From NCBI GenBank assembly GCA_043754515.1, contig JAYUUO010000077.1:1-15134 (forward strand): a DNA stretch of 15,134 nucleotides, written 5' to 3'. Every line of letters begins with the position of its first letter. The stretch's first letter is position 1. The notes below the pieces were generated by a model. It searched no databases. It was not told the origin of the DNA and saw only the letters and a list, made by a program, of their open reading frames with translations. The DNA is from Armatimonadota bacterium (GTDB lineage: Bacteria > Armatimonadota > Armatimonadia > Armatimonadales > Armatimonadaceae). The translations under genes were made by a program, and so were the position numbers. Shown piece after piece: positions 12,803-15,134 of this stretch.

Positions 12803-13106
12803 ACTGAAGTTGTAAAAAAGCGACAAACGGTTTGGCATGAAAGCCTATTCGCTTGATCTACGCGAACGGATTGTGGCTTGTGTTCAACAAGGACACAACT
12901 ACAGCGAAACGGCGGAACGTTTCGGCGTCTCGATTCCGACGGTCTCGCGTTACATAGAGCGTTTCGTTCAAACCGCCTCGCTTGCTCCCGGTACTGCTCC
13001 GGGAGCCAGAGCACGCATCACCCCGGAAATATGGCAAGCCTTAGAAAAGCGTGCCCAAGAAATGCCCAACACGACTCTCGCCGACCACCAAGCATGGCTT
13101 AAAGAG
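12803..13106 (+). mobile_element. IS630-family element, left fragment
   Basis: Begins after a TA dinucleotide and encodes the typical IS630 N-terminus; cut by the IS1 inverted repeat at 13107. Left boundary approximate. Confidence 0.75.
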
Positions 13107-13118
13107 GGAAGTGACTAA
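12837..13118 (+). pseudogene. IS630 transposase N-terminal HTH, truncated
   Basis: MKAYSLDLRERIV...AERFGVS..TV.R...P.TTLA; the stop lies within the IS1 IR and no DDE domain follows. Confidence 0.85.
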
Positions 13119-13342
13119 ATTGCAGTGATAAAATCTCGCGGATTCTGCTGCAACTTGGGGAGCTGGCGGTGGAAGCGTTGCCGCCGGTTCCACCCCAACA
13201 CGAACAGGTCCACCGACCGACTTAACGCCTCTATAACTCCGCTAGAAACAACGACTGCGCCGCGCCAACCGCGCCAGAAGCAGCGGCTCTTGCGCGCGAG
13301 CCGCGCCAGATAATGCCTCCGTTCCGCGTTGTCCCCTGCCAC

Positions 13343-13366
13343 CCGGCGAAAACTGCGTTTTGCCTG
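13343..13366 (-). repeat. 24-nt in-frame hairpin insertion
   Basis: Coding strand ca-GGC-AAAAC-gca-GTTTT-c-GCC-gg; adds 8 residues between TY and the V(E/A)GDN motif. Boundaries can slide by a few nt. Confidence 0.6.
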
Positions 13367-13534
13367 CCTGTATGTCGCCCGCTTCTTCGGCAGGCTCTGA
13401 TGCGCACCTGGATAACAGATCGTGTCATACAAATTGAACACGTCGTTGAAGCACTGTTTCGCGGAGGGCATCACATGCCAGACCATTTCCCGCAGGTCGT
13501 CCTCGGTGCGATGCATCACGACGCAGTGGGCGAC

Positions 13535-13564
13535 GCAGAGAGATCGCCTCGGGCGATCTTCGCG
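13535..13564 (-). repeat. 30-nt in-frame hairpin insertion
   Basis: Coding strand cgc-GA-AGATCGCC-cga-GGCGATCT-c-TC-tgc; adds REDRPRRSLC inside TRCI/VAH. Confidence 0.6.
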
Positions 13565-13607
13565 GATGCAACGGGTTCGCCTCTCGACCCACGTCATAAT
13601 ATACGCC

Positions 13608-14024
13608 TCATCTTTTTTTGTCCCCGATGAATGTGAACAATTCATCGCCCTCCACTACTTCTAAACTCGCTCCCCCGGTGCGCTCGTCGCGCGGCTGGGA
13701 CTGGTACGCGCTGACCGCCCCGTTTTCGTGGGGGAAGCCCTCCTCCTTCTTGGCCGCGTCGTGATATTCTTTGACCCAGTTGACGACGCTCTGATGGTTG
13801 ACACCCAGGTGACGGCCGACGCGGCGGAAGTTCGTGCCGTCCAGGTACATGCGCACGGCGCACAGTCGCATCTCGGGCGAGTACCCTCTGATCTTTCTGA
13901 CGAGGGCGTAACTACGCTTGCAGTCCTGGCATTTGAAGCGCGGAACACCGCCGCCCGGAGCCGTGCCGTTCTTGACCTGGTGCTCCTCCGCGCCACAACG
14001 GGGGCATTTTAGAAGGCTTGACAT
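13608..14024 (-). CDS. IS1-family transposase N-terminal frame (InsA-like: zinc ribbon + HTH)
   Basis: CPRC...CQDC, HTH (FRRVGRHLGVNHQSVVNWV), GDELFTF, then an A7 run (13613-13619) linking to the -1 frame. Promoter TGaTAGAAT 9 nt upstream. Confidence 0.85.
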   Translation of the reverse strand: MSSLLKCPRCGAEEHQVKNGTAPGGGVPRFKCQDCKRSYALVRKIRGYSPEMRLCAVRMYLDGTNFRRVGRHLGVNHQSVVNWVKEYHDAAKKEEGFPHENGAVSAYQSQPRDERTGGASLEVVEGDELFTFIGDKKR

Positions 14025-14174
14025 CGTGATGACATTCTATCACTGCAATTTAGTCACTTCTCCGGAAAACTAAATATAGATATAACTAAACCCGAATCTT
14101 GAGTTGAAACAAGTCGGTCATCCCGATGTAGAATGAAGTCGCCAAACTTTAGCCCTACAAAAGGATGACATCCC

Positions 14175-15134
14175 ATGCTCAGTATACAGAATCCCACCGC
14201 CAAAGCGGTACGCTCCCTCGTGGCTTCGCATTTCCCCGTGTCGGCACCGTTACCACCGTTGGTGCCAAAAGCGGCGGGGCGAGACTTGCAAAGCATCATT
14301 CACCAGATGACCGTGCTGTTCAGTACCATAGACGACTTTCTCAAAGGGCAGGCGACTTGGACTCACTGGCGACGCTCCCCCAATAACAAACCACGCTTCA
14401 CCGACGCGGAGGTACTTACCGTCGGACTCTTGCAAAGCTGCCTCAAAGTCGCCACCCTTAAACACGCTCACCGGATCGTCGCCACCGACTTCCTAACGGC
14501 TTTCCCCGCCCTGCCTTCCTACGCCCAGTTCATGGCACGGCTTCATCTCTTACAACCTATCGTTGGTCGCTTAATACAGCAGATATTGCCCGACTTCGAT
14601 GGCGACGTTTACTTGATGGATGATCGGAAACCGCGGCGGTTTGCCGAGAGCAAGCCGATCCCCGTCTGCAAGCCGATCCGGCACGGGCGGGTGCGTCTGC
14701 TCAGGGAGGACGGCGCATATTTCGGAAGAAACAGCTGTGGCTGGTATTTCGGATTCAAGTTGCACGTCATCGCCCACCGGAGCGGCACGATTTTTTGCGC
14801 TTTTCTTACGTCTGCTAACACCCCCGACCGAGATGCGGCGTTGGCACTAGCCCAAGCGGCCGATGGCGGCATCCTGCTCGCGGACAAAGCCTATCGGGGC
14901 AAAGAGTTGGAGACGCTTTTTGATGAGCAAGCCGATTTGTTGCTGATAACCCCTGGAAACCGCGGCGATGCGAACCGCGCTTTGATCAGTGGTTTACGCG
15001 AGCGGATCGAGACCACGTTCAGCCAGTTGTACGAGCGGTTTATCGACCGCGTGTATTCGCGCTCATTTCATGGACTATGGAACACGGTCAAGCTCAAGAT
15101 ACTGCACCTAAATTTCTGTCACGCGGGGTTGCTG
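14175..15134 (+). CDS. IS982-family DDE transposase (open to the window end; absent from the ORF track because there is no stop)
   Basis: Hand translation: IDDFL, FTDAEVLT, FPALPSY.QF..RL, YLMD[DRKPRRFAE]SKPIPVC, GWYFGFKLH, LADKAY, RERIETTFSQL. Start could be 14175 (ATG) or 14286 (TTG). Confidence 0.85.
   Translation, partial: MLSIQNPTAKAVRSLVASHFPVSAPLPPLVPKAAGRDLQSIIHQMTVLFSTIDDFLKGQATWTHWRRSPNNKPRFTDAEVLTVGLLQSCLKVATLKHAHRIVATDFLTAFPALPSYAQFMARLHLLQPIVGRLIQQILPDFDGDVYLMDDRKPRRFAESKPIPVCKPIRHGRVRLLREDGAYFGRNSCGWYFGFKLHVIAHRSGTIFCAFLTSANTPDRDAALALAQAADGGILLADKAYRGKELETLFDEQADLLLITPGNRGDANRALISGLRERIETTFSQLYERFIDRVYSRSFHGLWNTVKLKILHLNFCHAGLL
14622..14648 (+). repeat. 27-nt in-frame hairpin insertion
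   Basis: ga-TCGG-AAACCG-cgg-CGGTTT-g-CCGA-g splits the conserved D-S of YLMDSKPIPVC. Confidence 0.72.

Follow-up and report, generated by a model that had tools for sequence, protein, structure and literature searches.

The locus raises the question of how three short, bulged palindromes came to lie inside the reading frames of two unrelated transposases. The window, that is, the whole 15,134-nucleotide stretch of DNA that was analyzed, is contig C77 of an Armatimonadota genome of 5.13 Mb (G000; 313 contigs, 92.7% complete). The original prediction offered two readings, a tiny selfish element defined by its structure or a host mechanism that cripples insertion sequences (ISs) without frameshift, and allowed that the apparent bias to IS genes could simply reflect relaxed selection.

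Three hairpin inserts in two transposase genes

An IS1-family element on the minus strand (13108..14060; 30-base inverted ends at 13108-13137 and 14031-14060; insA at 13608-14024 and insB at about 13115-13645) truncates an IS630-like N-terminal fragment on the plus strand (12837..13118), and is followed by an IS982-family element on the plus strand (14089..15134; ORF at 14175-15134), which extends past the contig end. At the start of the IS630-like fragment, 126 bases (window 12823-12950) are skipped by contigs of runs X1, X5, and X7.

Two of the palindromes, representing families A and B, lie on the plus strand within insB: a net 24 bases at 13343..13366, which adds eight residues at the T-Y-x-V-E-G motif, and a net 30 bases at 13535..13564, with one bulge per arm, which adds ten residues in T-R-C-I-V. 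The third, of family C, is a net 27 bases on the minus strand at 14622..14648, directly after the invariant D149 of the IS982 transposase. Rechecking of the sequence bore out the positions, lengths, and stem, loop, and bulge readings originally given for all three, and the claim that they interrupt normally contiguous motifs also stood. Insert C places nine residues between D149 and S, where 117 of the 119 other listed homologs have the plain spacing, and among ten InsB homologs insert B is missing from nine and present in one, and insert A is missing from eight and present in two. At the protein level, IS982 homologs P0010 and P0012 from other samples have 8-residue inserts of their own at different sites. 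An apparent fourth insert in insB (13236..13301, minus strand) was rejected, being a diverged tandem duplication of ~32 bases rather than a hairpin insert; it is skipped in a variant of run X1.

In the IS982 transposase alignment D149 and D237 are invariant and E276 is nearly so, and we take these three residues to be the DDE triad. AlphaFold predicts a single strand over residues 144-153 in an intact IS982 homolog, and in the filled protein a strand over residues 145-149 followed by a low-confidence loop. The models suggest that insert C shortens the strand after D149 and may damage the transposase.

Four runs (X1, X5, X7, and X9) were compared, all as contigs. Over 14533-15134, a 779-base contig of X7, a run of another study, matches the window without substitution and differs solely by a 27-base gap at 14622; it is the exact empty IS982 allele, and shows insert C to be precise, with no target duplication. 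Contigs of X5 carry inserts C and A, and the IS1 on an X9 contig, which differs in 23 places over 655 bases, shows no such gap at A or B. The presence of the inserts in contigs of X5 and X9, which come from other studies, excludes an assembly artifact. The filled IS982 is multi-copy, because its depth in X1, possibly the source sample, is 126-130 vs 23-24 for single-copy DNA, and because the G000 assembly has at least four left and at least three right IS982 junctions; its copy number is about five in X1 and about one in X5. No empty IS982 variant is listed among the X1 contigs, which can drop rarer variants. A second IS982 subfamily in G000 has the same 18-base end and could have moved the filled IS982 in trans.

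The inserts belong to dispersed hairpin families

Each window insert belongs to a dispersed family, with 17 pattern hits in G000 for family A, 36 for B, and 18 for C. Eleven patterns gave 134 copies at 111 distinct sites, spread over 51 of the 313 contigs, against 0 in the reversed genome used as a control; at least one of the catalogued copies, C7, is probably not genuine. A covariance model finds extra copies, including a 29-base form. Measured against paralog or relative alleles, with self-matches and weak chance matches left out, the net gain is 24 bases for A, 27 for C, 30 for B, 28 for D, and 25-26 for K, and net lengths across the superfamily are 24, 25, 27, 28, 29, and 30 bases. The family B fold runs from an outer stem through a bulge, an 8-pair stem, and a variable loop back to a stem and a bulge; in an alignment of 24 hand-chosen copies, 7 of its 12 pairs have changed on both sides and 95% of cells are paired, with covariation as high in 0 of 500 shuffles.

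The hairpins also exceed a shuffled background, as predicted. Those with a bulge, a 3-base loop, and at least 11 pairs number 59 vs 10 in one shuffle, and those of the A-tract type number 187 in G000 vs 27-39 in three shuffles. Grouping by similarity placed 172 G000 hairpins in 18 groups, and found none in one shuffle. Rfam returned three matches (E 0.49-4), all far under the gathering score and outside the inserts.

Elements in G000 are nested within one another and occur as tandem pairs, those of family C being on contigs C225 and C69. On contig C172 (1130-1300, 5660-5830, and 6340-6480), two 27-base hairpin families are nested or adjoining in Russian-doll arrays. Other REP-like repeat families, unrelated to the inserts, are present genome-wide at 13-22 copies each, and Type I-E cas genes adjoin an element-rich prophage-like region at C138:1-9900. 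No convincing autonomous long version with matching arms was found. The first half of the original prediction was upheld, in that a structure-conserving process inserts bulged hairpins of 24-30 bases precisely, and the inserts are very probably tiny mobile hairpin elements.

Distribution across genomes

Outside this Armatimonadota genus the families were hardly found at all. A scan of relatives detected 27 copies of family B in G000, 6 in G002, 1 in G001, and 0 in the 58 remaining relatives. For family A, the counts are 45 in G003 and 2 in G002; beyond the genus it gave one hit each in 3 of 300 genomes of the phylum, which is the level of the reversed control. Family C gave 0 hits in three congeners, and in 5 of 57 genomes outside the genus model R1 scored one weak hit each. 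Four pattern scans of viral sequence gave 0 hits; exact patterns miss diverged families, and these negatives for wider spread mean "not found" rather than "absent". The genome_contigs collection contains two loci, both matching places in G002, and metagenomes contain three loci with family B, whose surroundings we take, from their motifs, to be transposase-like.

In G003, 28 family A loci were inspected, and most of them lie between or at the ends of housekeeping genes, often within another repeat and sometimes as inverted pairs. In G002, the IS200/605 TnpA genes at L212, L215, L217, L223, L226, and L227 have one to three hairpin inserts each, of further uncatalogued families.

Concentration in mobile DNA

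In G000 and G002, the elements are strongly concentrated in IS, prophage/ICE, Rhs, and DUF4351 genes. IS coding DNA, 0.52% of G000, holds 27 of the 134 copies, with an insert in 17 of 48 IS loci, and prophage/ICE regions (3.1% of the genome) hold 68, an enrichment that is partly circular, since queries and regions were derived from element-bearing loci. Rhs or DUF4351 genes hold 14 copies and 25 lie elsewhere; typical-codon genes, which make up 44.5% of the genome, hold 2 of the 134. If all 25 other copies were intergenic, their density would still be about 40-fold below that in ISs. A cleaner, family-free count gave 11 hairpins in 10.2 kb of G002 loci that had been selected by transposase homology; housekeeping/integrase loci (TopA, recombinase, RT) gave 3 in 27.7 kb, and IS loci of other genera gave 0 in 40 kb. 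Enrichment in IS over core genes is seen in both G000 and G002, and the bias is real and seems larger than relaxed selection alone explains. The elements may pile up in mobile DNA because such DNA is often single-stranded or newly acquired, weakly selected, and copied together with its passengers.

The presence of family A in core intergenic DNA of G003 speaks against an intrinsic bias to mobile DNA. It also speaks against a host defense that would mark and cripple mobile DNA by hairpin inserts, an explanation that fits the frequency of inserts in IS loci, the uneven load among IS3 and TnpA copies, some with three to five inserts and others with none, and the many inserts that adjoin catalytic motifs, insert C among them with its predicted effect on the strand after D149. 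Against this explanation, too, the filled IS982 has become multi-copy, many of the inserts in prophage genes are in frame, and no defense gene is linked to the elements. The second half of the original prediction, a host mechanism that cripples ISs, is on these grounds very unlikely.

Recurrent insertion at the same nucleotide

Four sites are hit repeatedly by inserts in a set of 12 IS3 copies. In an unrooted tree of about 330 bases, the filled copies do not form one clade at site I (AU p about 1e-40) or site II (2e-38), and at both of these sites every filled copy has an empty closer relative; a single clade is not rejected for sites III/WG (p=0.21). IS3 copies hit at the same nucleotide are 54-62% alike, and their inserts are identical at 23/24 and 24/24 positions, with flanks 57-60% identical. 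Two TnpA paralogs of G002 have unrelated 30-mers at one nucleotide, with 13 of 30 positions alike by manual count. As judged from sequence, the IS3 and TnpA recurrences show independent insertion. At Rhs and IS630 sites the divergence of inserts and flanks is similar, as would be expected from inheritance.

Recurrence could also be produced by homology-guided spread, in which rare illegitimate insertions would be copied among related IS, Rhs, and phage sequences as short flank-hairpin-flank single strands, and the hot spots and IS bias would then be products of copying among repeats, not of an insertion enzyme. Insert sub-variants do track with the homologous site in 13 groups, covering 30 of 141 sites; multi-copy flanks are found at 49 of 134 elements, compared with 8.7% of points drawn at random and 16.9% of intergenic points so drawn; filled IS3 copies share 6-15 flank bases, which fits short-patch copying; and a recombination-type duplication is present in the window IS1. 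However, copying does not account for unrelated inserts at one TnpA nucleotide, L095 retains its own right flank beside the insert, the IS3 flanks are only 54-62% alike, and the 29 distinct sites of family B share a weak consensus but otherwise show no pairwise parentage of their flanks (p=0.16). A non-homologous step would still be required for new sites, and we consider this route unlikely.

Junctions, reading frame, and orientation

The junctions lack a fixed target duplication and vary by no more than one base. Empty homologs, which are not ancestors, have at several sites a base that matches neither flanking base, as though one base had been exchanged, a tentative reading. Family G is an exception, with a 1-3 base repeat at 13 of 16 junctions. 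Empty targets show no excess of pre-existing hairpins (p=0.31), the near-flank consensus is weak in all seven sets tested, and no conserved target tetranucleotide is present in the flanks. Pairing of an element-encoded guide with the target was considered and rejected: there is no significant covariation, 54 arm-versus-flank tests gave scattered nominal hits only, and the pairing seen by hand in family D involves only five sites.

Lengths in multiples of three without an in-frame stop, a feature of the original prediction, characterize the three window inserts and not the elements in general, which include sister families of 25, 28, and 29 bases and copies with an in-frame TAG. Keeping the frame is no rule, because family D frameshifts IS3 orfB and two family B copies carry an in-frame TAG. 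Nor is the 3' bulge on the coding strand supported as a design feature, since other copies are found in both orientations; they occur in all phases relative to genes, with no codon-boundary or strand rule. Some family B copies lie 6-20 bases downstream of IS3/IS630 A-tract frameshift sites (C153:2785-2813, C74:11277-11305, and L066) and could alter frameshifting there.

Frameshifting lengths and in-frame TAG, together with the high conservation of same-site inserts and the expansion of the filled IS982, would suit silent micro-introns or ribosome-bypass elements that are passed on within IS lineages and taken out when the gene is expressed. Such elements would nevertheless require repeated exact loss, and they sit poorly with the finding of both orientations, with unrelated inserts at a shared site, and with insert C, which has no matching take-off and landing codons; the second IS982 subfamily could have mobilized the filled element in trans through the shared 18-base end. 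This alternative appears extremely improbable.

A candidate mover

The best explanation, which we hold to be probable though well short of certain, is a superfamily, restricted to this genus, of tiny mobile DNA hairpins that are non-autonomous and would be moved as folded single strands by an enzyme supplied in trans. That enzyme would cut and join through a protein-DNA phosphotyrosine link; the folded hairpin would bring two cut sites together, leading to excision, and the reverse reaction would insert the hairpin into single-stranded DNA. Such a scheme would be expected to yield exact junctions and to favor DNA in transit.

Targets of family B have C four bases upstream of the junction (-4) in 47 of 64 cases, over a background of about 0.3. 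The signal is present in the discovery set (22/29), in other genomes (9/10), and in the model-found set (16/25, including one homologous pair and three copies from a looser list). Topoisomerase I and reverse gyrase work on single-stranded DNA by way of a 5'-phosphotyrosine. Both prefer C at -4 (PMC7587558). The genus has a single TopA, in which the R-x3-R-x3-Y pocket spacing is kept, and the elements of families A, B, and C, read in the working orientation, likewise have a C at -4 from their ends. The host type IA topoisomerase TopA is our leading guess, and a tentative one, because C at -4 fails or is weak beyond family B and is lacking from window insert C on either strand. On the element strand, family A in G003 has C at -4 in 5 of 19 cases, and G at +4 in 13 of 19, many of these within one host repeat; families D, G, H, and K show no C at -4 excess; and for A, C, and E in G000 the orientation was chosen after the signal had been seen, the signal being unspecific in C and E. 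A one-base preference alone cannot explain recurrence at the same nucleotide. The fuller proposal, that transposase-free elements of 24-30 bases are excised and inserted by host topoisomerase I and thereby parasitize and disable ISs and prophages at reproducible hot spots, is doubtful. An unknown dedicated enzyme ranks below TopA and is a rather weak candidate.

Also below TopA, and distinctly unlikely, is an HUH/Y1 transposase (RAYT or TnpA) that would move REP-like elements in trans. Bulged hairpins without target duplication would be expected of such a mover, family A in G003 is mostly intergenic and sometimes forms inverted pairs, and Y1 genes are present in four of four genomes. However, 0 of the 22 Y1 loci in G000-G003 (genomes 82-93% complete) are flanked by these hairpins, which, where found at Y1 loci, interrupt the Y1 gene, as they do at several of them; the family B consensus is without a GTAG/CGTC tag, and the flanks are without the conserved tetranucleotide. 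The other systems suggested at the outset fared no better. No integron integrase scores above the TIGR02249 cut-off in the four genomes, and retron-like and DGR-like reverse transcriptase (RT) genes exist, but no catalogued element lies beside them; G003 (82% complete), the genome richest in family A, has no RT match. The GxxExxY-type nuclease PF13366 was found in 0 of the four genomes, and the searches found no cognate transposase or autonomous form.

Of the RT genes, the one at about 17470-18880 of G000 contig C263 (L184:1270-2682) is presumably retron-like, judging from its motifs. It encodes about 470-500 aa and has orthologs in G001 and G002, and it overlaps a gene with what we take, again from motifs, to be a BRCT-like end. 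At about 29300-30930 of contig C197 (L187:969-2804) there is presumably a DGR-like cassette, apparently consisting of an RT, a small Avd-like gene, and a template-repeat-like stretch.

Relation to known repeats and implications

We regard the elements as SDR/REP-like micro-elements that are mobile, precise, and recurrent. Small dispersed repeats SDR1-8 of Nostocaceae were reportedly described by Elhai et al. in 2008 (Genome Res 18:1484). The likeness to these repeats, as they have been described, lies in a size of about 20-30 bases, dispersed and tandem occurrence, precise insertion, a narrow host range, and the lack of a known mover. SDR5 is reported to insert into HIP1 and to be found only in Nostocaceae (PMC4390886, PMC5861425, PMC2884548). 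In contrast, the present elements are from another phylum, Armatimonadota, their flank consensus is without HIP1, they have a strong bias to IS and prophage genes, they recur at the same nucleotide in distant transposases, and their lengths are not all multiples of three.

The REPs that are tagged with GTAG or CGTC, the REPINs, and the RAYT system (PMC3733652, PMC3116915) share with our elements short imperfect palindromes, some of them intragenic and in frame. CGTC REPs are likewise without a dedicated transposase, and family A in G003 is REP-like. The differences are that the family consensuses here have no terminal GTAG/CGTC tag, that the unit is a single hairpin and not a doublet, that no RAYT flanked by the repeats was found, and that in G000 and G002 the elements are mostly inside mobile genes. 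The REP feature of being mainly extragenic and often in inverted doublets fits family A in G003 but not the elements in G000. Rickettsia palindromic elements and bacterial MITEs are also structured, non-coding, and inserted in genes, whereas they are about 100 bases or longer, and a MITE carries target duplications and, at its ends, inverted repeats that match an IS, both absent here (PMC3184786). In the mostly open-access literature that we searched, we found neither these elements nor an insertion of hairpins driven by TopA described.

Since the Nostoc SDRs were described, the way in which repeats of 20-30 bases move has been an open question. This genus offers a tractable case, with empty and filled alleles that match exactly, about a dozen families of one fold, provable independent hits on single nucleotides, and a target signature pointing to a host enzyme that can be tested. 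Should TopA or some other housekeeping enzyme turn out to be the mover, mobility would need no element-encoded protein. Whatever the mover, the elements look like an overlooked decay route for IS and prophage genes.
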